Below are positions 12,236 to 28,526 of a stretch of DNA of 29,149 nt, one piece after another. Numbering within the stretch: position 1 is the stretch's first letter; the number at the start of each line of letters is the position of its first letter. The DNA is taken from IMG/VR virus record IMGVR_UViG_3300048574_000482, positions 1 to 29,149 of that record. One strand, given 5' to 3'. The DNA is from a virus. Lineage: Duplodnaviria; Caudoviricetes. The translations under genes were made by a program, and so were the position numbers. The notes beneath the pieces are model-generated. The model saw nothing but the letters and a program-made list of their open reading frames with translations, made no database searches and was not told the DNA's origin.

Positions 12236-13111
12236 GTGGGTTGGTTCAGTGATTTTGTTGATGACGTAGAAGATGGCTGGGATGAACTTACCGGAAAAAC
12301 CGCTGCTGAAGATGCTCAAGATGAGATCAAGGCTCAGTCAAAAGCTGAACAAATTCGTCGTGAAGCAGAGATTAAAGCAAAAAAAGAATCTGCTGAGCGC
12401 GATATTGCGTATGCACAAGCTCAGTTTGACATCGAAACTCAAGATGCCCTCAAAAAAGCAGATGAGATAAATCAACAGGGCGAAAAAGTAGACGCGAACG
12501 CGACAAATCAGGAATCTCTTGTCAACGAAGCGTATAGCCAGAATATGAAGAAGCTCGGCACTACTGCCGATCAGATGGCTCTCGCCGAACAACAAACAAA
12601 AATCAGCCAAGAACAACAGGGCTCTGCATTAATGGCGGCCTTGGGAGGGTCCGGAACCCGTTCCGGGTCAACTGCCGCAAAGGTTTTGGTTCAAAATGAG
12701 CAAGTTTTTAACCAAAGCCTCAATCAGACAAAACGATCTGTTCAGGCTGATGAAGCCTATTCCTTGTCCTCAATGTATCAGAATCTTTCAAATCAGAAAC
12801 AGACACTCGGAGAGGCTCGTCAATCGGCACAACAGGCCTATACTGACGCTACACAGCTCAAGAGTGATTATTCAGAAGGTGGCAGAGCAATTAATTTGTT
12901 CAGCCAGAACATATCAAATCGCCGACAAGATCTCGATTCGACGATCAACCTGATGAATCTCGCAGGAAATCTGCAGCAGGATGCTTATAGCCGCGCGTAC
13001 GATCGAGCGAAATTCACGTTTGTAGATGGTTTCACCAATATTCTCACCTTAGCTAATGGTGCAATGAATACAGGTGAAAATATTTATAAATTCAGCTCAA
13101 TGTTTGCCTGA
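12236..13111 (+). CDS. Internal virion (ejection) protein, small
   Basis: GTG start after GAGG; helical Gln/Ala-rich; ALGGSGTRSGST; follows the nozzle gene. Confidence 0.65.
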   Translation: MGWFSDFVDDVEDGWDELTGKTAAEDAQDEIKAQSKAEQIRREAEIKAKKESAERDIAYAQAQFDIETQDALKKADEINQQGEKVDANATNQESLVNEAYSQNMKKLGTTADQMALAEQQTKISQEQQGSALMAALGGSGTRSGSTAAKVLVQNEQVFNQSLNQTKRSVQADEAYSLSSMYQNLSNQKQTLGEARQSAQQAYTDATQLKSDYSEGGRAINLFSQNISNRRQDLDSTINLMNLAGNLQQDAYSRAYDRAKFTFVDGFTNILTLANGAMNTGENIYKFSSMFA

Positions 13112-13122
13112 TAGAGGTTAAT

Positions 13123-15201
13123 ATGGGACAACATACTCTCGCCGATGCCTTGATGGCGGTATTTCAGACAACCAATACGGGTATCGATATTGCCTACCAG
13201 GTAAACATGGAGAAGGCAAAGAGTGAATTACAAAAATGCGACCTCGAAATGAAAGAGGCATACAACGAATATTTGGTCAATATCAATGGCCGATCAGACT
13301 TTGAAAACTTTCAGAATGATTGGGACGAAAAAAAAACCGAAACCTATAATGACATTATGTCAAAACTTTCGAGCCCTTACGCAAAAAAAGTCGCAGCAAA
13401 TCAGTTTAACCAGATGGATCTCGAACAGAAATACGCAATCCAGAGCGTTGTGACGAAACGAAAGGCTGACGTCACGTTGACGGACAATGCTAATTACCGG
13501 AACGCGATCGTCGCGAGTACTGCGTACACCGGCGATGAAAAGCGTCAGATCATGCAGGATTCCCGCCGGTCGGAATATGAATCCGGGTTGACCACTTATC
13601 AGGATTACGATCTTGGTTTGAGAAAAGATGGAGCCTCGCTTGCGTATACCGAGCTGGCTAAAATTGGTCGCAATTTTATGCAGCAAGGAGATCTAGCCGG
13701 GGCTCTTGATTCTGTTGACAAGTCGGAATTCAAATACCTGTTGCCGGACGGGAAGGAAATGCCGATCGATGCGATCAAACAACAGGTGAAAATGGATCTG
13801 CAAAATGAATGGGATACTGTTACCGAGAAAAAACAAGCAGCAAAAGCAAGTGAACTATCAGAAGATCTTGCCCAGTGTTTGGCTACGGGTGACCTAAATT
13901 ATGCTCGCCAAGGTATGGCAAAGATTCTGAAATGGACTGGCGATAATCTTTCGGAAGTAAAGAGAACCGAGTTCTCCGAGAAGTTTTCGAGCCTGCTCGA
14001 TCCGAAAAGCGACAAGGGCGCTGCACATTCAAAGATCCTTCAGGACATGCTCCAGTTCAACATGCAGAAAACGTTGAATCTCGTGTTTCAAGGAGAGAAA
14101 AATAAGAACGATCCGAACGCAGGGTACATCAATGCTAAAACAGGATTTGAGGCACTTACCGCAATCGGCACCAAGCTCCTGGAAGATGCTGGCGGCGGCG
14201 ACCCTGCATCGCTTGAACTGTTTGAAAAACTCAAAGGTGATTTCTATAGTGAGTTTGAGAAAATGATTCCGTCGAATTCCCCGGCGATCGCAAGCAAGGT
14301 CTCGCAGATCAAGGATCAGGCGAAGACCCTTGCCGCAAAAGCGATGGGATTCTCGGACGAAAAGGAACTCGACAAGAAGGCAACGACGGAACAGCGTGAG
14401 GCGTATTCGAATGCTCTTTCGTATCTCGATGGACGTGTGTGGGATGCCATGATGTCCATGAACATGGCGACCGTCAAGCCTGAAGATTTCGACAAAGTGG
14501 TCAATAACATTCTCGTTGCGTCGTTCTCCAAGCAGCTGGAGATCATCAAGAAATATCCGGATCAGCCGACCAATTTCGTTCGGAAAGGACTTGAATCGAG
14601 CGACAATGTTGCGGCGAGGTACATCGGCGCCGTAAATGACAATCCCGATCTCGCGTATGTCGATACGAAGGGCCATGAACAATGGCTGCCGGGAGTCAAG
14701 GAAGGGACTGAAGAATTCCGGAAGTGGGGAATCGACAGCATATCGGCCGCAACCGGTATTCCGGCAAAGGAAATTTCGGGAGCACCGGAGCTCAAGGACG
14801 GCGGCCGCGACATCGACGCGTCCATGATCTTCACGGCCCGTGGAAAGCAGTACAAGTATTTCGTTGATGGCGGAAAGCCGGTCCTCCGATCCCGGAGCGA
14901 CGGCGGCGAGTTTATGCCAATCTCAGGTGGATCGCCTAGCACGCGCGGAGAAGCGGACAAGGCGCAGAAAGACCAGAAGAAAGCTACCTATCAGGAGAAC
15001 ACGTCTCGAGCGGCCGATATCATCGATGCGAACCTTCAGACGTTGCTCAATGCACCAATGCCCGGGAAGAGCGGAAAGACCTGGATGGAATCCTACGACA
15101 ACCCACGCGCCGCGCTCGAGTCGTGGTCCGTCACCGATCCGGCCGGATTCATCGAATGGCAGAAAACCGTCAAAACAAAAAGAAAGAGCGGAGGACGATA
15201 A
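13123..15201 (+). CDS. Internal virion (ejection) protein, medium
   Basis: 692-aa helical protein in the gp15-equivalent slot; TAATG overlap with the next gene. Confidence 0.6.
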   Translation: MGQHTLADALMAVFQTTNTGIDIAYQVNMEKAKSELQKCDLEMKEAYNEYLVNINGRSDFENFQNDWDEKKTETYNDIMSKLSSPYAKKVAANQFNQMDLEQKYAIQSVVTKRKADVTLTDNANYRNAIVASTAYTGDEKRQIMQDSRRSEYESGLTTYQDYDLGLRKDGASLAYTELAKIGRNFMQQGDLAGALDSVDKSEFKYLLPDGKEMPIDAIKQQVKMDLQNEWDTVTEKKQAAKASELSEDLAQCLATGDLNYARQGMAKILKWTGDNLSEVKRTEFSEKFSSLLDPKSDKGAAHSKILQDMLQFNMQKTLNLVFQGEKNKNDPNAGYINAKTGFEALTAIGTKLLEDAGGGDPASLELFEKLKGDFYSEFEKMIPSNSPAIASKVSQIKDQAKTLAAKAMGFSDEKELDKKATTEQREAYSNALSYLDGRVWDAMMSMNMATVKPEDFDKVVNNILVASFSKQLEIIKKYPDQPTNFVRKGLESSDNVAARYIGAVNDNPDLAYVDTKGHEQWLPGVKEGTEEFRKWGIDSISAATGIPAKEISGAPELKDGGRDIDASMIFTARGKQYKYFVDGGKPVLRSRSDGGEFMPISGGSPSTRGEADKAQKDQKKATYQENTSRAADIIDANLQTLLNAPMPGKSGKTWMESYDNPRAALESWSVTDPAGFIEWQKTVKTKRKSGGR

Positions 15202-18200
15202 TGGGCGACTTTAACGACAGATTCAGCATCACGCGCAATGATACCGGCGAAAAGGTACGAAAGCTCCCCGATTTCCCGACCGCTCCCAAGCCGGCGGCCG
15301 TCGCCACTGATCAGGTCGCGCCCGCAGCGCCAGCATCGGCTGATCCCCCTTCTAATACCCCGATCAAGAAGCAGATGGAGACGGAAACGGCCGCGAAGGC
15401 AGCTCCGCTCAAGAGCGTCGCGCTCGATCCGGACGTCGCCGCATCCCAGGAGCGCGACGCCGCGAAGGCGGCGAATGTCGACCGGTATCAGGTCGATGTG
15501 CCCGACCAGTACTACAAGGTGTTCGGCGATTTCATCGCAAATTCGGATGATCCCACAGCCACCGCCTACCGGCTCGGAACGGCGTGGCGCTACACCCAGA
15601 TGTACGATATGTCTTTCGAGGACGCGTACAAGAACATCGAAAATCTCAATCAGGCGCTCCTGGGTGATCGCCAGTACTCGACGGCGAAGGATAATTTCTC
15701 GGCCGTATCGGACGCCTGGAAACTCGGGCTCAATGTCGTTCGCCGCGGCGCACTCGGAACAAATCTCGCGATTGCCGAGGATAACGGAAACCCGTACGAA
15801 ATCGACCGGATCCGGAAAGAGGTTGCGGCAGTGGACGGAGAAAACACCGGGCTTGAGGACCGTCAGCCTCGCGCCTGGTACGTTGAGGCGCTAAAATTCG
15901 GCGCCCAGTCGGCGCCCTTCACCGGAGCGGCAATCGGAGCAGGCCTCGTGGGCGGTCTTTTCGGACCGGTCGCCGCCGGAGCGTCAGCATTCGCAGTATC
16001 CATGCAGAATGCCCAAGGGTCGGAATACCTTGATCTCCGGAGCGAGGGAGTCGAGCCGGACCTTGCCCGAAACCTGTCGATCGCCTCAGGAAGTCTGCAG
16101 GCAGTCGTCGAGGTCGCTCTCGGTAATACCGCAAGCGTTGTCGGAAAGGCGGCGGGCGTCGAGACGATCACGTCGAACCTCTTCAAGCGGCTGCACGTCA
16201 CCGGAGCATGGACGCGCGCCGCGCGGGTCATCGGAGAATATAGCGGCGAAGCGGTCGAAGAAGGAGTCGAAGAGGCGCTGCAGGATCTCATCAGTTCAGG
16301 ATCCCAGGCGCTCGCGGCCGAGCTGCAGGGCCACGGAGTTGAACAGAAAACGGCGAACGAAGTCGCGCAGTCTGCCTGGGAAAACTTCCGGGGCGGCTTT
16401 CTCGGGTCGCTGGTGCTCGGCGTTGCCGGCGCGGGAATCAACGCACATACGGAAGTACGCGACGCGATCGCGCTCAAGGACGCTTCGGTCTCGATGGACT
16501 CGAAAGAGGCGTTTATCAAGGAGACCGCCGCAAGCCCGGCATTCGAGGGGCTCACCGATGCGGATCGCGCCGAGGTGCAGTCGAAGATATGGGATGCCGC
16601 CGCGACGAAGCGTGACGCGCGAATCAATGCGAGCGCTGCCGATATCGCTTCCGGCGCCGACTTTGCCGGTGAAAGCGAAACTGAAACCGTATCGGAGACT
16701 CCCGCGCCGCGTGGAGCCGTGCAGCGGACATCCGAGGGAAAACTGCACCTGCAGGAAGGAAAGGACGTCATCCAGAACAATGACGGATCGTCGACCCGGA
16801 TCCTGAAAGTCGGAAATCCGAACGAGGAAACGAGTTACAACCGGTACGGCTACATCAAATTCCGCGAGTATGACGACAAAGTCGTCGTCGACGATTTCCG
16901 CATGTCTCCAGGCCGGGAAAACATCAAGCGCGAGTTTTTCGACGAGTTCACATCGCGCTTCTCCGGCAAGAATGTCGAATGGGAACCTCGCAGCGAAAGC
17001 GGAAAGGCATTCGTGAAACAAGTCGTCGCCGGGAACCCCGCCGGGAGTTCCGCCGGTCTCCAGTATTACCATGACGTCGACGCCGGCACCGTCCGGGGTC
17101 GGGTGAAGCTCGATAACCAGATTAAGCAGTTTCTCCCGCGTCTCGACGAAAACGAGCGGGCCGCCGCCGTTGCCCTCCTCGAGACTCGCGCATCCGTAAA
17201 GGGACAGGACCTCGAAACCTACCTCGGGGAAACCTTTCATCCGACCGTATTTTCGGACTCGAAAACGGTCATTCCTGAAGCGGCACAGAGTGCAGGAATC
17301 GATTCTCGGGGAGTGAAAGGCGGTGTTGCGTTCCCGAAGGACGACATCTCGGGATCCGCGAAAGCACTCGTGTACGTGACGCAGAACTCGGATTTTTCGA
17401 CCTATACGCACGAGATCGCGCACGTGTTCCGGCGGGAGATGAGCGGCGACGACCTCGCGGAAGCCGAGCGCGCGTTCGGTGTGACAGACGGCTCCTGGTC
17501 CCGGGACGCCGAGGAACGTTTCGCTGTCGGCTTCGAGGAGTATCTCCGCGAAGGTAAGGCGCCCACCACGGCGCTCGAAAGCTTGTTCCGAAAGATGGCC
17601 GAATTCCTCCACCGGATCTACAACGCACTCGCCGCGCGGGTCGAGGTGAGCCCTGACATCAGGCACGTATACGACAAGCTTATCGCCGGCGCGGGGCCGC
17701 TCGCGGAGATCGAGACGTCGGCGCGGTCCGGGAAGAGCGTGGGAAGAGAAGAGACCGGCGATACCGCCGGGAGAATGACTGGACAGAAGAAGACCGAAAA
17801 CCTCACCCAAACGGTAGAGACGGCTCAGGAAGGGCCAACCGCGCAAGGCGACATCGATGCGGATCAGTCGCTCGCTGATGCGTCAAAATCGATCCTCGAC
17901 GAAGCTGGATCGATTTATTCAACGATCCCCGATGACATGTTTTTTCAGGCGGCTGCTGTAAAGAAACTCCTCGAGCACATGAGCCGGGAGGAGCTCATCG
18001 AAATTTTGCATACGAGCGACTCTGCCGGCGGCGTCCCGAATTATCGAGCGTATAGGAGAGACATCGAACAGGATGGAGCGTGGCCGGTTCAAGTTTCGCT
18101 CGATGCCGACAGCCTCAAATGGGTCAACGACAACATGGGTCATGCCTCGGGAGATCTCATGCTGAAGGAAATCGGCGAGACGATGCGTGACTATGCGGAC

Positions 18201-21200
18201 GGTTCAGGTGTTCGTATTTACCACAAATCTGGAGACGAGTTTTTAGCGCAGGCAAAAACTGTCAACGAATACATGAAATTCAAAGTGGCACTTGATAATC
18301 GTTTGAAAGGAGTTATAATTACAGTACGCGATGCTCAAGTCGGTGCAACAATCGAGAAACCGGGGATTTTCCTCTCCGATGGAATCGACAACAAGGGGGA
18401 CATGAATGCCGCAGATAAAAACCTTGAACCTGAAAAATCTTACCGAGAGGATCATGGCGAAAGGGCTGGACGAGGTAAGATCCCGCCCGGAGTCCGAATC
18501 GTTTATGACGACGGACGGATTAGTGACGATAACTCGGTCCAAGAATACTTCGACTCCCGCGCAGAAGAGATAAAAAAAAGAACCGCTGAAAATAACGCTC
18601 CAACCAATCAATTTACCCCGTCAAGGACCCGCGAACTTCGGAAAATCATTGAAGACGGCGGGGAAATTCTTTTCCAGTACATAGGCAACACCGCCGACTT
18701 ATCGAACCAGGAAACGAAAAACTTATCGATCGCGAAACGAATGCTCGAGGACTCGAAGGATATGGAGACCATCAGGCTCGCTACGGGATGGTTTCAGGGA
18801 CTCAAGGATAAAAAATGGCGATATGAAATCAGCGATAAAAACTCAACGTTCCTTCAAAAGGATATATCCGAAAAATCTGTAGATCTTTCTTCTGTTCTGA
18901 TTTTTCCGGAGTTATATAAAAAATATCCCGAAGCGAAACAGATTAAAGTCACTTATTTACCGAAACAAATCGATGAAGGCAGGATTAGTGCTGCCTACGG
19001 GCGCGGCGACGACGGAAAAAAATATATTCTTGTCAGCCGTCATCAGCCGAACCAGTGGGAACTCCAAAAGGCAATAACTCATGAACTGCAACATTGGATC
19101 CAGGAAAAGGAGGGGTTCGCCGATGGCGCTAATCTTGATGAACTCGAGGGCGAAAAAATCGATTTCAAGGACTTGGAAAAGCAATGGAATATCGTAAGTA
19201 CTGCATGGAATATTAAAAGGGATCTGTCTCGCCCGGATAATACTGCAAATCTCGACGAAATCATTGGTATGTATGAGGATTTGCAGGGCCACCAGATCGA
19301 TTATCAAATTCCTCATTTGATAAATTCAAAGACTGTTGAGGAATTGGGCAAAGAAGCGAAATCTCTTCGTGAGCAGGTAGAAACGAGCAAATTCTATAAG
19401 TACACACCATATCAAATGTATATGAATTCCGCTGGAGAAATCGAAGCGCGCGACATTGAATCCCGCTATGGACTATCCGACGAGCAGCGGAAATATATCA
19501 AGCCAGTTCATACAACCGAGAAATATCAAGCAGATATGCTTTTCCAGACCGACGAGGAACTCATCAAAGACGCCTCGACATTCGAATCATGGCAGAACTT
19601 CATGGAATACTACGAGGATTCTCCGTTCCGGCCGGACGACGCGGCAGTACCGGAGAACGTTGATGCTCAGTGGTATCAGACCGTATGGGAAAAGGCTCAT
19701 GGAATAATACCTGAAGAATCACTGAACGCCGAAGAAATGGCGTCGCGCGCGGCCGCAGATTCCGTCGCCCCCGGAAGTCCCGACACCCAGGACGCGCTCT
19801 GGCTCGCCGAAATGCAGCACAAGCCCGCCGAGCTCGATTCCTTCCTTCGTCGCATCAACGACATTCTGACCACGAAAAACGATTTTGCGCCCGCAGACGC
19901 CACCGAGCAGCAGGATATGGAGAATACCGAGCGGCTCAAGAGACGGATCACCACGGAGCTCCGGCACGGCTCCTGGATCAGCAACGCGACCCGCGTCGCT
20001 GCCGGCCGCGAGCTGACCGAGAAGGCCCGCCGGACGCTCATCAGCCTCATGCGCGGTGCCGCGCGGGATTACCGCGCGCTTTACGCCGACCTCATGGAGG
20101 ATCCCACCTGGTCCGTCGCGCTCGCCGATACCGATGCCGGCAAGCTCGCCTCGATCGCCGACCCCAAGCTCGATTACTCGGAAATGTCACCCGAGCAGCG
20201 CCGGAAGATCGCGGACCGGATCGAGAACGCCGAGATCGCCCGGAAGCTTAAATCGGGAGAGCTGACCTTCGACGAAGCGCAGCGGCATATCGCGTACCTC
20301 AACAAGGAGCTGAAGGCAAGCGAGACGCGCGAACGCGAGGTACTGAAGCAGCTTGCCGACGAGAAAAACGAAACGAGCGAAGACTACCGGCGGATATCCG
20401 ACTGGGAAACGCGACAGCTTTTGAAGGCGAACGAAGAATTCCTCATGGCTAAGGCGCGTTACACCGCCCGGAACGACAAGACCGCGCGCATGATCGAGCG
20501 CGGTCAGGCGATCACGAAGAAATACGAGCTCGAGAGCCAGCAGATCAAGGCAACCTACGACACGGTATTCCGGAAATTCTCCGATCTCATGAAGGCAAAA
20601 GAGATCTCCGGGGCAGTCGGAACCGCGCTCGCCCGCCGGGAATCTCTTTTCGAGGCACGAGCGGAGAACGCCCGGCTCCGCGAGCAGATCTCGGCCGCGC
20701 GGGAAGCCCGAAAAATCAGGCTTGGGCTTGCGAAGCGCACTATGCGACGCATTTCATTCGACCGGATCGACTACGAGTCCGCACGGAAGATCATCGCGAT
20801 TCAGCGCGCTTTCTTTCCGGCCATGCAGAAGGGACTCAATAAGTGGATCGGAACCGAAGGGCCGTATCTCCGCGAGGTTTATTCGAAGTGGAAAACGAGC
20901 GACGAGTACCGTATCGAACTCGAAAAGGATCTGAGTCACCGGAAAGGCGGCCGGAAGCTACTCGCCTTGCTCGACAAGGATTTTGATACCTGGACGCGAT
21001 CGGAACGCGAAGACGCGCTCGCGGTGCTACCGAAAGAGGATTGGGTTGCAGAGCTCAATCTCGACAAGCTCGCCGAGGAGCGCGAACAGGCGCTGCAGAT
21101 GGACGAGTCCACCGACGAGTACAAGAAGCTGCTCTCCGAAGCGCTCCCCTCCCGGATCGCGTCGAGAATCGAGAAACGGCCCTTCGCGGAATGGACCATC

Positions 21201-23588
21201 GAGGAAATGGAGGAGCTCGCCGGCGTGGTCGACAAGCTCTACAGCGACGGCCGCCGGATGCTCGAGGCGAAGAAACTTGCCCGGCGCAACGACTCTGCTG
21301 ATATCCGCGATCGCATCAAGAAGGTGATCAAGGATGCCGGCATCAACGAGGACGACAGCCCGGAAGAAAAGGAGCGGAAGCGCGCGGCATTCGAAAAAGA
21401 GCTTGGAATGAATCGGCAGGTCAAGGGAACGCTTGCCGATTCCGTGCAGCGCCAGTCATTCCAGAATCGTGTGCTCCGGAACGGGTATGCCGATGCCAAC
21501 GTCCGGCGCGTCGCGCGAATCCTCGACAACGGAAAAGACGGAATCAATACCGATCTCCTGTATAACCAGGAGGATTCCTGTTTCAATGAAAAGCACCGCC
21601 GGATCCGGGAGCGAACACGGAAGATCAACGCGGCAATGACCGCGGCCGGAGTGACGATCGACGAACTCTATCAGCCGATCGAGATCAAGGATTTTTATGG
21701 CCCGGGGGAGAGCCGGTCATTCACGGTCGACGAGCTCATTTTCGCGCTGAAGGCAGACGAGGACGACCAGAGCCGCGCCGCCGTGAAGTATGGAAATATG
21801 ATTGACGACAGCGAGAAGGATTCTTTCCGTGGAGAGGTCGACGGCGGCATCATCGAGAACATTGCCGCGCCGCGTTACAACGCAGTACTCGCGGCCGCCC
21901 GCGCGCTCGACCCGAAGTTTCTCACGTTCGCGGAATCGATCTCGGCCGACTATGCCGATCAGTACGAGCGACTGAACCAGGCATCAATCGAGGAATTCAA
22001 TCAGCCGGTATGGCGCGTCCAGAAATACGTTCCTCTCATGCGTCTCGAGAGCTCCGGTGACACGAACGAAAATCGTGTCCGCGACGATTTGCTCAACCTT
22101 TCCGGCGGCCGCAACCAGTCCGGGGCCGACAAGGGAATGACGCAGAAGCGCATAGAAATCGATCCACTCTATCAGCGGCCGGTGCAGATGGGACTGTATT
22201 CCACGTGGAACGATTCCGTCACCCGAACCGAGCACTTTGTCGCGTACGCGCCGTATGTCCGCGAACTCAATCGCGTGTATAAGAGCGTTGACGCGAGCAA
22301 CATGCGCGGCTGGATCCGCGCCCGCTACGGCGACAAGATGATTTCGTATCTCGACGACTACATCAATGAATGCGCGAACCCCGAGGCGATCAGTAAACAA
22401 AGTCAGCTCGACCGGATTGTCCGGACGCTCCGGGGCCGGACAGCGCCGGCGTATCTCGCTTGGAAGCTCTCGGGCGTTCTCAAGCAGTTTGTCACGAGCC
22501 CCGCACCGTATCTGACTTTCGTCTCGCCCGCCGAGTACGCCGCCGCCGCCTTCGACGTTGCGCGTAACTTCTCTACGCTGAGCGACACGATCCGCGAGAA
22601 AAGCGTATTTATGGATTCGCGCGTTATGGATCCAATTATCGACCTCATAAAGGAGCAGCAGGCGAAAGCCTCGAGCCCGCTCGCAGCGAAGTGGATGCAG
22701 ATCAGCGATATGGGCATGAAAGGGCTCGAATTCGCTGACTGGTCGTGCGTCGCTCCCGGATGGCTCGCGGTGTACCGGAAGACGCTTGCCCAGGCACAGC
22801 GCGAGAATGAGACGATCGTGCAGACTGAAACCACTCGACTGGAAAAGGAGAACGAGACACGGTCAGTTGAAACGATGCGGACTGCAGATGAGATCAAGGC
22901 GATAGCTGAAGGAAAGGTCCGATCGCTCGATGAACTCGAAGCGAGCGCGGTCAAGGCCGCCGACGACGCGACGCGTATGTGCCAGCCTTCGAGTCGCTTG
23001 GCCGATCTCGCCCCGATGTTCAAAGCGAAAGGAGAAAACACCGAAGCGCTGAAGATCATCACGCAGTTTCAGACGTCGCTCAATGTGATCTGGCAAAATA
23101 TTCGCTACGATTTGCCGGCCGCCGTTCGGGAAAAACAGTACCGGCAAGCCGTTGGCATAGTCGGCGGGTACATCGCCGCTGGCGTCGCGGTAAACCTCAT
23201 GACGCAGGGTCTCGCCGGGGGCGGCGGAGATGATGACGATTCCCTTTCCCGCGCCCGATCCCTCCTTTACTATTCGACTACGCAGTTCACAGATTCTGTC
23301 CCGCTCGTCGGCGACATGGTGACGAATCTCGCGCAAAAGGCGATAACTGGTAAAAAAGAGCAGCTGTTCGGAGACGATATGTTCCCCGCCGTGTCAAAGG
23401 TGCTGCAGGCAGGACAGGCCGCAACGTCCGGTGATTGGGATAGAACACTGCAGCGCTTCGGTGAGGGCATCGGTTACGGAATTGGTGCTCCGGTATCTGG
23501 CATCAAGGAAGCCGGCCGCGTGATCGGATTTAACGGAGAGGACGGTTCGTTCGATATGAGTCCGGACGCATTGATCGGAAGGAGATAG
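15201..23588 (+). CDS. Large internal virion / polyvalent protein (2795 aa) with GNAT-like, zincin, GGDEF and LPD23-zincin modules
   Basis: Start re-assigned to ATG 15201 (GGAGG at 15190-15194, TAATG coupling). Gly/Ala hydrophobic helices near both ends; HEIAH 17409-17423; SGDEF 18228-18242; TGWFQGLKDKKWRYEISD; HELQH 19080-19094 with GEIEAR. Confidence 0.85.
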   Translation: MGDFNDRFSITRNDTGEKVRKLPDFPTAPKPAAVATDQVAPAAPASADPPSNTPIKKQMETETAAKAAPLKSVALDPDVAASQERDAAKAANVDRYQVDVPDQYYKVFGDFIANSDDPTATAYRLGTAWRYTQMYDMSFEDAYKNIENLNQALLGDRQYSTAKDNFSAVSDAWKLGLNVVRRGALGTNLAIAEDNGNPYEIDRIRKEVAAVDGENTGLEDRQPRAWYVEALKFGAQSAPFTGAAIGAGLVGGLFGPVAAGASAFAVSMQNAQGSEYLDLRSEGVEPDLARNLSIASGSLQAVVEVALGNTASVVGKAAGVETITSNLFKRLHVTGAWTRAARVIGEYSGEAVEEGVEEALQDLISSGSQALAAELQGHGVEQKTANEVAQSAWENFRGGFLGSLVLGVAGAGINAHTEVRDAIALKDASVSMDSKEAFIKETAASPAFEGLTDADRAEVQSKIWDAAATKRDARINASAADIASGADFAGESETETVSETPAPRGAVQRTSEGKLHLQEGKDVIQNNDGSSTRILKVGNPNEETSYNRYGYIKFREYDDKVVVDDFRMSPGRENIKREFFDEFTSRFSGKNVEWEPRSESGKAFVKQVVAGNPAGSSAGLQYYHDVDAGTVRGRVKLDNQIKQFLPRLDENERAAAVALLETRASVKGQDLETYLGETFHPTVFSDSKTVIPEAAQSAGIDSRGVKGGVAFPKDDISGSAKALVYVTQNSDFSTYTHEIAHVFRREMSGDDLAEAERAFGVTDGSWSRDAEERFAVGFEEYLREGKAPTTALESLFRKMAEFLHRIYNALAARVEVSPDIRHVYDKLIAGAGPLAEIETSARSGKSVGREETGDTAGRMTGQKKTENLTQTVETAQEGPTAQGDIDADQSLADASKSILDEAGSIYSTIPDDMFFQAAAVKKLLEHMSREELIEILHTSDSAGGVPNYRAYRRDIEQDGAWPVQVSLDADSLKWVNDNMGHASGDLMLKEIGETMRDYADGSGVRIYHKSGDEFLAQAKTVNEYMKFKVALDNRLKGVIITVRDAQVGATIEKPGIFLSDGIDNKGDMNAADKNLEPEKSYREDHGERAGRGKIPPGVRIVYDDGRISDDNSVQEYFDSRAEEIKKRTAENNAPTNQFTPSRTRELRKIIEDGGEILFQYIGNTADLSNQETKNLSIAKRMLEDSKDMETIRLATGWFQGLKDKKWRYEISDKNSTFLQKDISEKSVDLSSVLIFPELYKKYPEAKQIKVTYLPKQIDEGRISAAYGRGDDGKKYILVSRHQPNQWELQKAITHELQHWIQEKEGFADGANLDELEGEKIDFKDLEKQWNIVSTAWNIKRDLSRPDNTANLDEIIGMYEDLQGHQIDYQIPHLINSKTVEELGKEAKSLREQVETSKFYKYTPYQMYMNSAGEIEARDIESRYGLSDEQRKYIKPVHTTEKYQADMLFQTDEELIKDASTFESWQNFMEYYEDSPFRPDDAAVPENVDAQWYQTVWEKAHGIIPEESLNAEEMASRAAADSVAPGSPDTQDALWLAEMQHKPAELDSFLRRINDILTTKNDFAPADATEQQDMENTERLKRRITTELRHGSWISNATRVAAGRELTEKARRTLISLMRGAARDYRALYADLMEDPTWSVALADTDAGKLASIADPKLDYSEMSPEQRRKIADRIENAEIARKLKSGELTFDEAQRHIAYLNKELKASETREREVLKQLADEKNETSEDYRRISDWETRQLLKANEEFLMAKARYTARNDKTARMIERGQAITKKYELESQQIKATYDTVFRKFSDLMKAKEISGAVGTALARRESLFEARAENARLREQISAAREARKIRLGLAKRTMRRISFDRIDYESARKIIAIQRAFFPAMQKGLNKWIGTEGPYLREVYSKWKTSDEYRIELEKDLSHRKGGRKLLALLDKDFDTWTRSEREDALAVLPKEDWVAELNLDKLAEEREQALQMDESTDEYKKLLSEALPSRIASRIEKRPFAEWTIEEMEELAGVVDKLYSDGRRMLEAKKLARRNDSADIRDRIKKVIKDAGINEDDSPEEKERKRAAFEKELGMNRQVKGTLADSVQRQSFQNRVLRNGYADANVRRVARILDNGKDGINTDLLYNQEDSCFNEKHRRIRERTRKINAAMTAAGVTIDELYQPIEIKDFYGPGESRSFTVDELIFALKADEDDQSRAAVKYGNMIDDSEKDSFRGEVDGGIIENIAAPRYNAVLAAARALDPKFLTFAESISADYADQYERLNQASIEEFNQPVWRVQKYVPLMRLESSGDTNENRVRDDLLNLSGGRNQSGADKGMTQKRIEIDPLYQRPVQMGLYSTWNDSVTRTEHFVAYAPYVRELNRVYKSVDASNMRGWIRARYGDKMISYLDDYINECANPEAISKQSQLDRIVRTLRGRTAPAYLAWKLSGVLKQFVTSPAPYLTFVSPAEYAAAAFDVARNFSTLSDTIREKSVFMDSRVMDPIIDLIKEQQAKASSPLAAKWMQISDMGMKGLEFADWSCVAPGWLAVYRKTLAQAQRENETIVQTETTRLEKENETRSVETMRTADEIKAIAEGKVRSLDELEASAVKAADDATRMCQPSSRLADLAPMFKAKGENTEALKIITQFQTSLNVIWQNIRYDLPAAVREKQYRQAVGIVGGYIAAGVAVNLMTQGLAGGGGDDDDSLSRARSLLYYSTTQFTDSVPLVGDMVTNLAQKAITGKKEQLFGDDMFPAVSKVLQAGQAATSGDWDRTLQRFGEGIGYGIGAPVSGIKEAGRVIGFNGEDGSFDMSPDALIGRR

Positions 23589-23590
23589 GT

Positions 23591-25663
23591 TTGCAACTCG
23601 ACGCGGTAGACATGTCCAATAGCCAACTCACTGTAGGCTCTCTGAAAATTTTGGGGGATCTATCAGGAACGAGTGCAACGGCCATCGCTACTGCCATCGC
23701 TACTGCACAGGCAAAAGCTCAGACAATCGCAGCTGGCCTCGCTTCGACAATTAAGGATTTATCGTCTGATGGTATTATCTCCCCGGTTGAAAAAAAGACG
23801 GTCAAAACAGAGTTTTCAACTATAACTAGCGAAGTTTCAGTAATTATTCAGGCAGCCACTGACGCTGAAGTGGCAGTGGCTGATATTTCTTTGTACCAGT
23901 CTTCATATCAAAAGCTCTATACGTATCTGTATTCGAGTCTGAAATTATTTGATGACATGGGAATCTCTACTGAAATAGATTCCGTGGAGTTCTCCAATAA
24001 TTTCAACGAGTATTATCTTGCTCGCGTAGAAATCCAAAACAAAACAGTTGTATCGCGATATATAAAACTCACCGAAGAAATATCTACGCGTCCCAATTAT
24101 ACCGAAATCGCTCAGGGGTTTACTCAGGCAGGACTCGTTGTCATTCCGACACAGCTCAACGTCACGGCTGTCGGTGGCTTCCGCTTCATCACGATTACCT
24201 GGGCAAAGCAATCGAACCTTTCAAACCTGAAGGAATATCAGATCCAGTGCTCCGAAGATGCAATCACGTGGTATGCACCGAGCCTCGATGGATCAGGAAC
24301 GAACGGACACGGAACCACCGCTGACGCATTCTTCTCGACGACCTCTCCTATGCTGGTTCATCCGAATATTCCGCCTGCAGGTACGACCGAAGCCCCAATT
24401 GGACGACTCATGTATTATCGCGTCAGGCAGCGAACGGCTCTTGAAGCGTATTCCGAATGGTCTTCGGTGATCGCAGCGACGACGAAAGTTGCCAATACAG
24501 GCGACTATGCCGCGAATTCGATATCTGCGAATGCCCTCAAGGTAACTGAGCTTTATTCACTCCTTGCGACAATCGGAGATACACTGATTGTTGATCCAAA
24601 CGCAGGTCTGGCCGCTCAGAACGTCGAGTATTCTGAAGGCGACACCCGGTCGATGCTCACCGCGAATGAGCTTCTTTTCCAGTACGTAAAGAATGGCGGT
24701 TGGTCTACGATTGTGCGTCTTGCCCTCGAAGGGCTTCGGACCAATCAGGTGTATTCACAGGATAAGCTTGTTCTTACCAATAACGGTATGTCCGGCCGCC
24801 GACTGCACGGTTTTGACTTTGGAATCGCATACCTTTCCGCAAGTTCTCGAGTTTGCCACTTCGACTCTGATCTTTACGATCAAACCGGGGAATCCTATTT
24901 CACCATTTCCGGAACAGGAGCGCTTGTAGGAAAAGACGACGGTATTCCTCCTGCTATTGTTGCAGTCGCCCCGTATGCGACCGAGGCGAAAAGCCTCTAC
25001 GGTAAGTTCCGACTGCAAAAAACGCTTGGTGTTGTAAATACGTTTACGCTCGATTTCTGGATTCTCTACTATTACAACGAGAACCAAGAGATTTTCCGAG
25101 TCGGATCAGCGAGCGAGTATGTGTCAATCGATGTGCTCAATTCTGAGCCGTATTACAACGAGGACTCGTTCCAGTATAACGACACCATATCAGGTGCGGC
25201 TTGGTACAACGAAATTCAGGGTGCCGTTGCGCGTGTCGTCTACTACCTAAATGGAGTTTTTGACATTCGGTACATCCAAGATGCGTCAGGAAATCCCGCG
25301 CTCACACCCGGAAGCTGGTATCACATTGGCGTAATCGACTCTGGTTCGAGTTTGCTGGTGATCGTGAATACAACAAAGTTCAGCTTTACTTCACCGTCAG
25401 CGCGAACTGAGTCCGTTGCAATCGACATAAACTCGACGCTGGGGCAATTCCTCGTCGATGAAGTTCTGGTCGATGCGACGGCGGCGGAAACGGATACGGC
25501 ATTTATCGCAAACACATCGGCGAAGAAACCGTGGGCAAAACTTTCTGATGGTACTGATTGGTTCGTTGTCGATTTGAAAGATCCGGCGAATTTCAAAACG
25601 AATATGTTTGAAAGCCAAGTTTTTAAGGACGCGGTGCTCGCAATTGCGGCACCAAAGGTATAA
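23591..25663 (+). CDS. Tail-associated adhesin / host-specificity protein (FN3-like plus ConA/LamG-like domain)
   Basis: TTG after AAGGAG; DGIISPVEK motif; ITITW...EYQIQ...YYRVR...SEWS (FN3-like); FTLDFW...WYHIGV...VDEV (LamG-like). Confidence 0.65.
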   Translation: MQLDAVDMSNSQLTVGSLKILGDLSGTSATAIATAIATAQAKAQTIAAGLASTIKDLSSDGIISPVEKKTVKTEFSTITSEVSVIIQAATDAEVAVADISLYQSSYQKLYTYLYSSLKLFDDMGISTEIDSVEFSNNFNEYYLARVEIQNKTVVSRYIKLTEEISTRPNYTEIAQGFTQAGLVVIPTQLNVTAVGGFRFITITWAKQSNLSNLKEYQIQCSEDAITWYAPSLDGSGTNGHGTTADAFFSTTSPMLVHPNIPPAGTTEAPIGRLMYYRVRQRTALEAYSEWSSVIAATTKVANTGDYAANSISANALKVTELYSLLATIGDTLIVDPNAGLAAQNVEYSEGDTRSMLTANELLFQYVKNGGWSTIVRLALEGLRTNQVYSQDKLVLTNNGMSGRRLHGFDFGIAYLSASSRVCHFDSDLYDQTGESYFTISGTGALVGKDDGIPPAIVAVAPYATEAKSLYGKFRLQKTLGVVNTFTLDFWILYYYNENQEIFRVGSASEYVSIDVLNSEPYYNEDSFQYNDTISGAAWYNEIQGAVARVVYYLNGVFDIRYIQDASGNPALTPGSWYHIGVIDSGSSLLVIVNTTKFSFTSPSARTESVAIDINSTLGQFLVDEVLVDATAAETDTAFIANTSAKKPWAKLSDGTDWFVVDLKDPANFKTNMFESQVFKDAVLAIAAPKV

Positions 25664-25677
25664 GGGGAGGATAGAGA

Positions 25678-26796
25678 ATGGTACTTGATCTTACGCTTAA
25701 TGCGATACAGATTCCAGGACTGACGACTTTCACGAAGATATTTGGAACAAAGAAGGCTGACGGGAAAGGTCTTACAACTGCTGAGGTAAATGCGAATATG
25801 CTCGCGCCGTGGAATAGGCAGCGGCCATACACGGTTGCAGAAATTTCCTCGACTGGCGTTGTTGAGGCAGACGCCTGTATCTCGATAGCTACCGGATGCT
25901 CCGCGATTACACTCGGGGACGGATCATTTACAGGAGTCCGCGTCCTCCTCATCAATACCACGCCATCGGCCGTGCAGCTCATTACCGGGCAGGAGTCTGG
26001 TTACATCCTTCCTTACCAGACGCTTGAGGTTATGTGGTTTGGCGACTGCTGGTACGTCTGCGACGGCCACATGGTTGGCGAAATCCTCAACGTGACGTTC
26101 CCTTTGACCAAGATCCCGTTCGGCTATATGTCGCTCCACAGTGGTCTTCGGCCGTCGAGAACTGCATACAAACGGCTTGCAAACACGATTCTCTACCCGC
26201 TGGCTAATGTCCCGTTTACTTGTACAACGGCTGCTCCGGCAGTTTTCACTGTCGCTGCTGGGCATGGATTCTCGGGAGGCGAACGACTTCGGCTCTTCAC
26301 GTCCGGCGCGCTTGCCGGAGCAACGCTCTCACAGGATTATTTCGTCGAGTACATTTCGACGACGACGTTCTATCTCAACACTCTTGAAGGAGGCACAGCG
26401 AGACTCGCGATCACCGCGCAGAGCGGGACGCATTACTATCAGTGCAGCGCGTATGGAGTAGGCGACGGATCGACGACAATGGATCTTCCGGACCCCCGGC
26501 AGTCGGCTTTCGTCGGAGCGGGAACTGGTACGACACATAATATCGCTTCTGTCGACTCGTATTTGAGAGGACAGTTCAAGGATGACCGTTTCCAAGGATG
26601 GAAATTGCAAATAACCAAATCTGATCCCGGTTGGGGTGGTAGCCTATGGGGAAATGGTGATGCATCAACTCGTGTAGCTAATGTAATTTATACACAAGCT
26701 ATTGTTGCAGACACAGCAAACGGTTTCGGAACTCCGCGGGTTGGAACAACCACTCGCACAAAACAACTCGGAACCAATTATCTAATCAAGTATTAG
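25678..26796 (+). CDS. Tail fibre with collar domain and variable C-terminal tip
   Basis: VGEI...IPFGY...SRTAYKRL and YGVGDGSTTMDLPDPR collar motifs; ends TNYLIKY; SD GGAGG. Confidence 0.85.
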   Translation: MVLDLTLNAIQIPGLTTFTKIFGTKKADGKGLTTAEVNANMLAPWNRQRPYTVAEISSTGVVEADACISIATGCSAITLGDGSFTGVRVLLINTTPSAVQLITGQESGYILPYQTLEVMWFGDCWYVCDGHMVGEILNVTFPLTKIPFGYMSLHSGLRPSRTAYKRLANTILYPLANVPFTCTTAAPAVFTVAAGHGFSGGERLRLFTSGALAGATLSQDYFVEYISTTTFYLNTLEGGTARLAITAQSGTHYYQCSAYGVGDGSTTMDLPDPRQSAFVGAGTGTTHNIASVDSYLRGQFKDDRFQGWKLQITKSDPGWGGSLWGNGDASTRVANVIYTQAIVADTANGFGTPRVGTTTRTKQLGTNYLIKY

Positions 26797-27068
26797 TATT
26801 TGATAATGTAATTTGTACCGAGTTGTTTTGACCGATTTACAAGGCCGGTCCGATTCGTTCTTGATGTATCAATTCCAATGACTGCTGATGATTGAGATCC
26901 ACCAGATCCAATATTGCCATTGTCTGATGCTGCGCCATATTTGTAAAACACACCAGACTGAACAGATGTAGCATGCCATCCTGTTATAGCTTGGAAATAA
27001 CCAGCAATTTTTTGCGACTGGTCATCCTTGAACTGACCACGAACGTATGAATCGACAGAAGCGATATT
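26539..27068. mobile_element. Putative invertible segment (530 bp) with two alternative tail-fibre tips
   Basis: Flanked by an imperfect 49-bp inverted repeat (26539-26587 / 27020-27068, 41/49 identical, with perfect 17-bp and 16-bp blocks). Confidence 0.85.
26793..27068 (-). other. Silent alternative tail-fibre C-terminal cassette (91 aa, no start codon of its own at the junction)
   Basis: NIASVDSYVRGQFKDD...RSKQLGTNYIIKY is paralogous to the expressed tip NIASVDSYLRGQFKDD...RTKQLGTNYLIKY. Confidence 0.88.
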
Positions 27069-27101
27069 TAGTGTAGTGAATGATTTTATGGGAGGTTGAA
27101 A

Positions 27102-27719
27102 TTGAGAATATGGTTTTTTGATTCGAATACCGGAGAACTGATTCCGACATCGGACGCCGACAAAGGGTCGGAAGCGCTGGAATCTCCTCGGGAGCCGGGG
27201 AAATTCCTTAAGATCAAGTATAGCACGACGACCCGCGCGCCGGAATACGGCGAGAACGAGATTCCTGTTTTCGATGGAACGACGTGGATCGTCAAGAAGG
27301 ATTTCCGTGATCTTCAAGCCTGGTACAAGAATTCCGGTGAGAAGGTATCGACATCCGAAATCGGGATCGAGCCTGAAGGTGATTATGTTGAAATCGAGCC
27401 CGAAGGAGTGGCGAATCCGAAGTGGGACGACGCAACCGCAGCTTGGCGTGAGAAAACTGAACTCGAACTCTACGACGAATCCTACGAGAAGAATCCGGAA
27501 TCGACCGTCTTGCAATATGCCTCGATGCGGCGCGCCGAACGCGATCGCCAGATCAGGGAAGAGCAGGACATGATCGACCGGCACGAGAACGAGGTCGCCG
27601 ATGGAGACGATCCGACAGAGACGAACGCGACGATATCGAAACGTCGGAAGCGGATCAAAGCTCTCCGTGACGTACCGGATCAAGCGTCGTTCCCGCGGAC
27701 TGTTATCTGGCCAGATTAA
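27102..27719 (+). CDS. Tail fibre assembly protein / chaperone
   Basis: N-terminal ESPREPG..STTTRAP..W..KKDFR (Tfa-like) and C-terminal KALRDVPDQASFPRTVIWP chaperone motif. TTG at 27102 is 6 nt after GGAGG; the track start 27096 abuts the SD. Confidence 0.8.
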   Translation: MRIWFFDSNTGELIPTSDADKGSEALESPREPGKFLKIKYSTTTRAPEYGENEIPVFDGTTWIVKKDFRDLQAWYKNSGEKVSTSEIGIEPEGDYVEIEPEGVANPKWDDATAAWREKTELELYDESYEKNPESTVLQYASMRRAERDRQIREEQDMIDRHENEVADGDDPTETNATISKRRKRIKALRDVPDQASFPRTVIWPD

Positions 27720-27725
27720 ATATAT

Positions 27726-27755
27726 TTTCCCTGTCTCGTAAAATCCACCTATGGT
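27726..27755 (+). promoter_or_regulatory. Putative late promoter upstream of the lysis-like genes
   Basis: TTTCCCTGTC, AAAA and -10-like TATGGT; matches the motif at 4873-4901. Confidence 0.45.
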
Positions 27756-27788
27756 GTAATGAAATATCAGGACACTATAGGGGATAAA

Positions 27789-28526
27789 ATGAATTTCATA
27801 ACGCAGATACCGGTAATGGGATGGGTCACTATCATGGTGCTGATCGTGGCTTTATTTCTTTTAATCTGGTTCAAGGGATTAAAATTCAGGAAGGGTGACA
27901 CTCAAGTCTCGGTCGGCGAAGAAATCGAGAACAAGATTTTGGAATTAAAAAAAACAGTGGATGAACGCGAAAATATTCGCACGGGCGACGAAGAAATTCG
28001 CAAAGATCTTTTTCGGGAATCGAACGCTATTGACGACCGGCTGAAGGCCGACATGCGCCGAATTGTCCGGTCGCTCAATGATTCGATTTTTCCGGTTTTT
28101 GGTCCATTCGTTAAATGCGAATTCCCGTCGGTCAGGGTGGTCGACATCATCAAGTCGGAACTGATGCAGCGAATCGATGAAAATCACATGCGCGAAAGGC
28201 TCAGGTCGATCGAGATCAAAGGCTACATCGAAGAAATTTCCGAGGACATCAGGAAGGAATACAACGTCTTTCTTAGAACCGTCAGCGCAACGAGATGCGG
28301 GGAAGACTATCCCTCCTGGGAATCCGTTGCTGATGGCGTCTCGATTATACTCATTAACTGGGCCGAAAGAACAAAAAACGCAATCTGCGCGCGGACACGC
28401 GAAAAAATCGCGAGTTATTCGTCGGCGAGAAACCGCTTTACCATCGAGGAATACCGAAAAAAGTCCGTGGACGACCCGATCGAAAAAAATCGCGGATATC
28501 TTGCCTCGCTCGAGGCGAAGCTATGA
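27789..28526 (+). CDS. Single-TM membrane protein in holin position
   Basis: TM segment WVTIMVLIVALFLLIWF followed by KGLKFRK and a long helical soluble domain; ATG 27789 has AGGGGA upstream (27759 is the alternative). Confidence 0.65.
   Translation: MNFITQIPVMGWVTIMVLIVALFLLIWFKGLKFRKGDTQVSVGEEIENKILELKKTVDERENIRTGDEEIRKDLFRESNAIDDRLKADMRRIVRSLNDSIFPVFGPFVKCEFPSVRVVDIIKSELMQRIDENHMRERLRSIEIKGYIEEISEDIRKEYNVFLRTVSATRCGEDYPSWESVADGVSIILINWAERTKNAICARTREKIASYSSARNRFTIEEYRKKSVDDPIEKNRGYLASLEAKL

Follow-up and report, generated by a model that had tools for sequence, protein, structure and literature searches.

Gin, Cin and Min are serine invertases that lie beside kilobase segments, chaperone genes included, and act at near-palindromic 26-bp sites with a 2-bp core. 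These tail-fibre inversion systems of Mu, P1 and p15B are named in a report on prophages of Bifidobacterium (Mavrich et al. 2018, PMC6109161), which also describes two further arrangements. In the prophages Bb423phi2 and 689b-1 a segment of about 500 bp is inverted, no recombinase flanks it, and an invertase acting in trans is proposed. In the Rin shufflon the constant N-terminus of a tail protein is combined with several variable C-terminal cassettes, at a short asymmetric site of 11 bp and beside a flanking tyrosine invertase. Three other reports describe related systems. The sfx sites of plasmid R64 are asymmetric and conserved in the core and one arm only, the longest conserved run being 13 nt (PMC11852207). 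RecV of C. difficile and Mpi of B. fragilis are master host invertases that act on distant loci (PMC5903667). A survey of programmed inversions reports tail-fibre genes as enriched and some regions as being without a nearby recombinase (PMC9881135).

The locus compared here with these systems lies in a phage DNA of 29,149 nucleotides, analysed over its whole length and called the window. Its cassette works like Gin/Cin/Min and Rin and is a member of neither, because a flanking invertase is absent and there is a single spare. The likeness to Gin, Cin and Min is a presumed host-range switch through inversion of the distal coding part of a tail fibre. The window differs from them in its segment of 530 bp, in a chaperone gene that stays outside, in the lack of an adjacent serine invertase and in a palindrome of at best 4-6 of 12 pairs.

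With the Bifidobacterium prophages the window shares a size of about 500 bp, a dissimilar spare that replaces the 3' part of a structural gene, the lack of a flanking recombinase and the proposal of an invertase in trans. The site is 8 bp there and 14-17 bp in the window, and both orientations were seen there, in two prophages, whereas in the window phage the evidence is indirect only. The gene has an undetermined function there and is a collar-family fibre in the window, the hosts are Actinobacteria against a spirochaete, and the window site is common to two unrelated backbones. The constant N-terminus, the variable C-terminal end of a tail protein and the short asymmetric site recall Rin. 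Of the traits of Rin and Rci, the asymmetric site with a variable outer arm is present in the window; a flanking tyrosine invertase, and at least three sites with several spares, were not found. R64 also exchanges the C-terminus of a tip adhesin, but this is a plasmid pilus adhesin with seven sites and an adjacent rci, and the likeness is one of site shape, not of sequence. The targets of RecV and Mpi are host loci, with several sites on the chromosome, whereas no exact chromosomal copy of the window site was found in 5 and in 401 genomes.

In the reading preferred here, at a probability of roughly 0.6, the locus comprises a fibre gene and a backward spare tip between 17-bp inverted sites, the segment would be flipped by a recombinase encoded elsewhere, and an alternate host receptor would then be bound.

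The phage and its host

The window is an entire IMG/VR record (G000), a provirus with a CheckV completeness of 54%. Its virion module is of the podophage type, with Pfam and PHROG profile matches to Bbp16, the GP7 capsid and a head-tail connector; from the names of these matches we take the phage to be BPP-1-like. The same virus is found in a second record (L217), with 100% identity over 18739 bp, which stops before the cassette. A protein of 2821 aa, encoded at 15123-23588 within the virion module, has an LPD23 domain and, at residues 991-1106, a stretch like GGDEF that scores above the Pfam cut-off; its relative in the prophage G005 is without residues of about 1190-1470.

Among 401 genomes from the family that includes G001, a genome titled Treponemataceae, 11 have capsid matches at 35-62% identity; in addition, a gene that flanks the prophage L003, described below, is 88-90% identical to Treponemataceae assemblies. 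Together these matches make an environmental treponeme the likely host.

The tail module at 23591-27719 (a 690-aa protein from residue about 130-160, the fibre and the chaperone) is 45-72% identical to genes of the siphophages L002 and L003. In the podophage relatives G005, G114 and G143 the match is confined to the first 150 residues, so the module was swapped between phage types.

Organization of the fibre cassette

The features of the locus, with strand and basis, are the following.

25678-26796, plus strand: tail-fibre gene of 372 aa, constant body (25678-26538) and expressed tip; open reading frame, PHROG 9370 tail fibre (E 2e-8)
26539-26796, plus strand: expressed tip A, 85 aa; comparison of the tips among the open reading frames
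26539-26555, plus strand: left 17-bp site, codons N-I-A-S-V-D, likely crossover site; perfect inverted repeat, 14-bp core common to both L003 arms
26572-26587, plus strand: 16-bp block, codons Q-F-K-D-D, coding sequence in both arms; perfect repeat, not kept between the L003 arms
26754-26835, no strand: convergent homologous C-termini of tips A and B, with 39-nt arms 79% complementary and stop codons that overlap at 26793-26796; inverted-repeat search
26793-27068, minus strand: silent tip B, 91 aa, open frame, own ATG absent; list of open reading frames
27020-27035, minus strand: right copy of the 16-bp block; perfect inverted repeat
27052-27068, minus strand: right 17-bp site; perfect inverted repeat, fibre homology ending just outside
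27096-27719, plus strand: chaperone (tail-fibre assembly) gene, beyond the invertible segment; open reading frame from TTG 27096, scanned from 27111

The invertible segment comprises the 530 bp at 26539-27068, and the constant fibre body is 287 aa long. The 372-aa fibre itself has no Pfam match in the profile search, and its homologues (P0012-P0016, L207 and L210) bear the collar domain PF07484. A PDB profile search gives a single weak match, to the T5 L-shaped fibre chain (E 0.004), and the tip of an AlphaFold model has a mean pLDDT of 43, too low for a fold search. The chaperone gene matches PF16778 (E 7e-5, under the cut-off) and PHROG 105 tail fibre assembly (E 4e-8), and occupies the place where related cassettes hold a recombinase. 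The cassette interior (26588-27019) has a GC content of 40-44%, against 53-55% in the flanks.

An earlier note on this DNA had described the two tips as alike at their ends and unrelated in their middles, between a perfect 17-bp inverted repeat and a second block of 16 bp. This description is borne out: at the N-terminus 15 of 16 residues are identical and at the C-terminus 11 of 13, the middles are 25% identical, and both repeats lie at the positions listed above. Inversion in silico at either the 17-bp or the 16-bp block fuses the silent tip in frame, as had been claimed, and yields an open fibre of 378 aa. The differences between the blocks are also, as reported, mostly synonymous: the 17-mer and the 16-bp block are separated by 6 codons, of which 5 show a synonymous difference between the arms and 1 a non-synonymous one.

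Both blocks fall within one 58-nt inverted repeat of 81% identity, the longest among 353 pairs in the window. The check for further copies of the 17-mer that had been proposed found only the same two in the window, even with 3 mismatches allowed (0.11 expected), and by chance 0.0016 perfect inverted repeats of 17 bp are expected within 1 kb. A chance origin of the repeat is therefore excluded.

A second phage with the same layout

A close fibre is found at three metagenome loci, of which L003 and L004 share the window layout and L002 has a single tip. In L003 the expressed tip is followed by a convergent silent tip of 82 aa and then by the chaperone gene. The silent tips are thus open in both phages, at 91 aa in the window and 82 aa in L003, and their middles are 36% alike. 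L004 does not differ from L003 within the cassette, which has the same orientation in both, and the two may be one strain.

L003 is an unrelated siphophage prophage with a tape measure gene, a lambda-type capsid and a DNA methylase gene after the chaperone, and it is flanked by Treponemataceae-like genes. Its positions 12263-13200 hold a DNA adenine methylase gene, a hairpin and an abrupt junction with the 3' terminal part of a gene of glycoside hydrolase family 1. The end of L003 is fused there to the last 100 residues of the glycosidase gene, which suggests a transposable prophage with its end at this junction.

Evidence for inversion

Logan wastewater contigs of five runs (5 of the 20 listed) were placed on the window at 80% likeness, and 22 of the 43 pieces are listed; their loose ends were read by hand. 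In run X1 an arm like the expressed copy (3 differences in 46 nt) adjoins the chaperone gene. In runs X5 and X4 an arm like the silent copy continues the fibre body (4 differences in 58 nt and 5 in 50 nt, respectively). Run X4 also has, beside the chaperone gene, an arm of the expressed L003 type, whose match to the window ends at the 17-mer. These junction contigs are single contigs, at a depth of about 4-16, and come from relatives, different phages with other tips. Both arm types at both positions constitute indirect evidence of past flipping. The junctions fit the prediction of a past inversion at the 17-mer, and module exchange between phages could look alike. With L003 as a second instance, they support the central claim of the earlier note, that of an invertible two-state tip cassette without an adjacent recombinase.

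One 373-nt contig of run X1, at a depth of 24, matches 26527-26582 and then 27021 onward, with both arms seemingly only about 270 nt apart; the tips would then be shorter or truncated. A third sequence context, considered as an additional cassette, was dropped, as it fits the non-coding flank of another phage. The best sequencing run holds a share of 0.14 of the sampled words of the window (14%), and with such small run shares the habitat is not firmly indicated.

Fibres with bodies 91-92% identical bear unrelated tips (P0017, P0007 and P0008). Among 80 candidate proteins none of full length ends in the tip B of the window, the two matches being distant (40-43% identical), and by this search the flipped form of the window phage was not found. 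Flipping of the window phage is nevertheless likely, judged from the arms in its relatives.

Search for the recombinase

The earlier note had placed no recombinase beside the cassette and had advised a search of the remaining genome. Neither a tyrosine (PF00589) nor a serine (PF00239) recombinase was found in the record, which is 54% complete and covers 26.5 kb upstream and 2.1 kb downstream of the cassette; both profiles were detected in control genomes and in the L016 record. None was recognised in the additional 1641 bp of the second record, or in the 21 kb of L003, which extend about 10 kb to either side of the cassette and in which 10 phage reading frames upstream and 2 downstream were scanned. 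In the close prophage G005, whose terminase is 68% identical, 10.5 kb separate the small terminase from a tyrosine integrase upstream of it, beyond the span that matches the window. As this place falls outside the window, the window phage likely carries at least an integrase of the G005 type.

Among the relatives, no locus was found that combines the same site with an adjacent recombinase. The 16-letter site pattern is found in 0 of the 401 host-family genomes. Copies with one mismatch number 29, in 18 of the 27 host-genus genomes, and the reversed control gives 6; these copies were discounted, as about 24 are expected under a uniform base composition and the mismatches are scattered. In viral contigs all 5 of the 5 exact matches to the 17-mer are single and unrelated, and the chaperone as query gives no match; the fibre alignment gives no match in genome contigs. 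In the host genus a fibre match occurs in 1 of 27 genomes, distant and without a cassette. The L207 recombinase was found in none of these 27 genomes. Serine recombinases occur in 6 of them and yield no host-wide candidate. The best reading is that of a flipping enzyme unlinked to the cassette, encoded by the phage, a helper or the host.

Related cassettes in other genomes

The wider tip family has matches in 10 of the 401 host-family genomes; 8 were examined and 3 have an inverted spare. Two of these, L207 (8311-10499, with a fibre homologous to the N-terminus of the window fibre) and L208 (10485-13965), adjoin tyrosine recombinases, and the third, L210 (14898-16213), stops at a contig end. 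The sites of all three differ from that of the window; a likeness seen by eye for L208 and L210 (7 of 11 bases) was rejected as too weak. In the L208 cassette BspA-type leucine-rich repeats belong to the expressed gene, and the spare consists of an entire collar-type domain; the L208 recombinase shares 40% identity with integrases from two related prophages.

Among 25 viral loci, silent-tip arrays are found in L015, L016 and L018. L016 (10118-11969) comprises a siphophage fibre, four antisense spare tips and an adjacent serine recombinase (PF00239), with a separate integrase; its sites are near-palindromic around a GT core, with 4-9 of 12 pairs. An altered cassette order between L015 and L016 was ruled out, since blastn shows L015 to be without one cassette. 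In L023 (7292-10303) the collar-tip motif occurs in three direct copies, each in its own gene of a single phage; two of the copies share 88% identity over 241 nt. Each cassette group has its own, different site.

The cassette might also be a frozen orphan, that is, a fibre-chaperone module acquired without its linked recombinase, which flips only in rare co-infection. The lack of a recombinase in the window and in the 21 kb of L003, whereas cassette-bearing relatives have an adjacent one, is in keeping with this, as is the failure to find the flipped form among the 80 candidate proteins. The cassettes of L003 and L004, identical and in the same orientation, point the same way, but count for less if both are one strain. 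This explanation is nonetheless unlikely, as the silent tips are intact and different and the sites perfect in two unrelated backbones, and a relative with this site and an adjacent recombinase was not found. A switch still served by an unlinked enzyme stays the preferred reading.

The crossover site

The 17-mer and the 16-bp block fare differently in L003. A 14-bp core, ATCGCTTCTGTCGA, is common to all four arms of the window and L003, whereas L001, a relative without a cassette, has synonymous differences within it. In both phages the two arms agree at 5 of 5 codons inside the site. Past the site, identity drops to 5 of 10 codons in the window and to 3 of 9 same-residue codons in L003, and the 16-bp block is peculiar to the window. 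The homology of fibre and spare starts at the 17-mer in both cassettes, with 8 of 30 (window) and 9 of 30 (L003) bases identical upstream.

As a control, 46% of the same-residue codons are identical between the window and L003 fibre genes, with 9 runs of 3 or more, so that an identity of four codons across the phages is weak evidence alone. The argument stands on the 17-mer, which in both phages is perfect and forms the outer edge of homology. Since L003 keeps the 14-bp core and not the 16-bp block, the 17-mer is the likely crossover site and the 16-bp block an unlikely one.

The earlier note had also compared the 17-mer to a tyrosine-recombinase site on account of a TCG-N7-CGA dyad. The dyad itself is weak: it has 4-6 of 12 arm pairs across the four arms and ties with registers of a 2-bp and a 6-bp core. 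The leaning to a tyrosine enzyme survives on other grounds, as the site looks more like the asymmetric Rci/Rin type, with a conserved core and inner arm and a variable outer arm. The tyrosine class is preferred because of this shape and of the relatives L207 and L208, whose own sites differ.

Exchange driven by homology, through RecA or a phage annealing protein over imperfect arms of 49-58 bp, would make the 17-mer merely their best-kept part. The arms are indeed alike over 58 nt in the window (81%) and over 77 nt in L003 (73%), N-I-A-S-V-D is a protein motif of 7 of 12 fibres, the dyad is weak, and tips vary freely among close bodies. This reading is improbable, as the perfect identity lies at the same place in both phages, where homology begins, and the remainder has drifted synonymously; relatives with the same layout have site-specific recombinases. 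Furthermore, 17 perfect bases are short for RecA. Site-specific recombination at the 17-mer is the reading retained.

That the layout is an assembly artefact, or that the antisense frame is independently expressed, is very hard to credit: although no placed contig spans the complete cassette among the pieces listed of the five runs and the antisense frame is open over 296 codons from a TTG at 27683, L003 and L004 show the same layout with different tips and the fibre protein occurs on 4 contigs, and the long frame lacks an internal ATG, overlaps the chaperone gene, has no promoter-like minus-strand site upstream of the silent tip (26300-27900 scanned) and in L003 has an equivalent closed 20 codons before the G-Q-F-K-D-D motif.

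Proposed mechanism and implications

In the preferred reading, a recombinase, more likely of the tyrosine type, would exchange strands within the 17-mer, whose core is ATCGCTTCTGTCGA. The 530-bp segment would then turn and place tip B, of 91 aa, on the constant 287-aa body. The enzyme may come from the half of the phage outside the record, from a co-resident prophage or from the host. By analogy with known fibre switches, the unrelated tip middles may bind different surface receptors, and the one constant chaperone outside the segment would serve both fibre forms.

A prophage inversion of about 500 bp without a recombinase, together with the idea of an invertase in trans, has been in print since 2018 (PMC6109161). 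New here are the host group, that of spirochaetes, and the presence of one site in two phage backbones without an adjacent enzyme; a literature search that left subscription journals mostly uncovered found no account of such switches in spirochaete phages.

The finding extends fibre-tip phase variation to spirochaete phages. It also presents a single collar-type tip family with several sites, beside a tyrosine recombinase, beside a serine recombinase, or without either. A frozen cassette would be only an ordinary relic left by module exchange. One short site in two backbones is a defined substrate for finding the enzyme. A wider proposal, put forward tentatively and doubtful at present, is that the fibre and chaperone form a portable module of unrelated phages of treponemes, one a BPP-1-like podophage and the other a siphophage that is likely transposable, and that a host or helper recombinase would flip the tip at the common 14-bp site. 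If this is true, the host cell would set the host range of the phages it releases.
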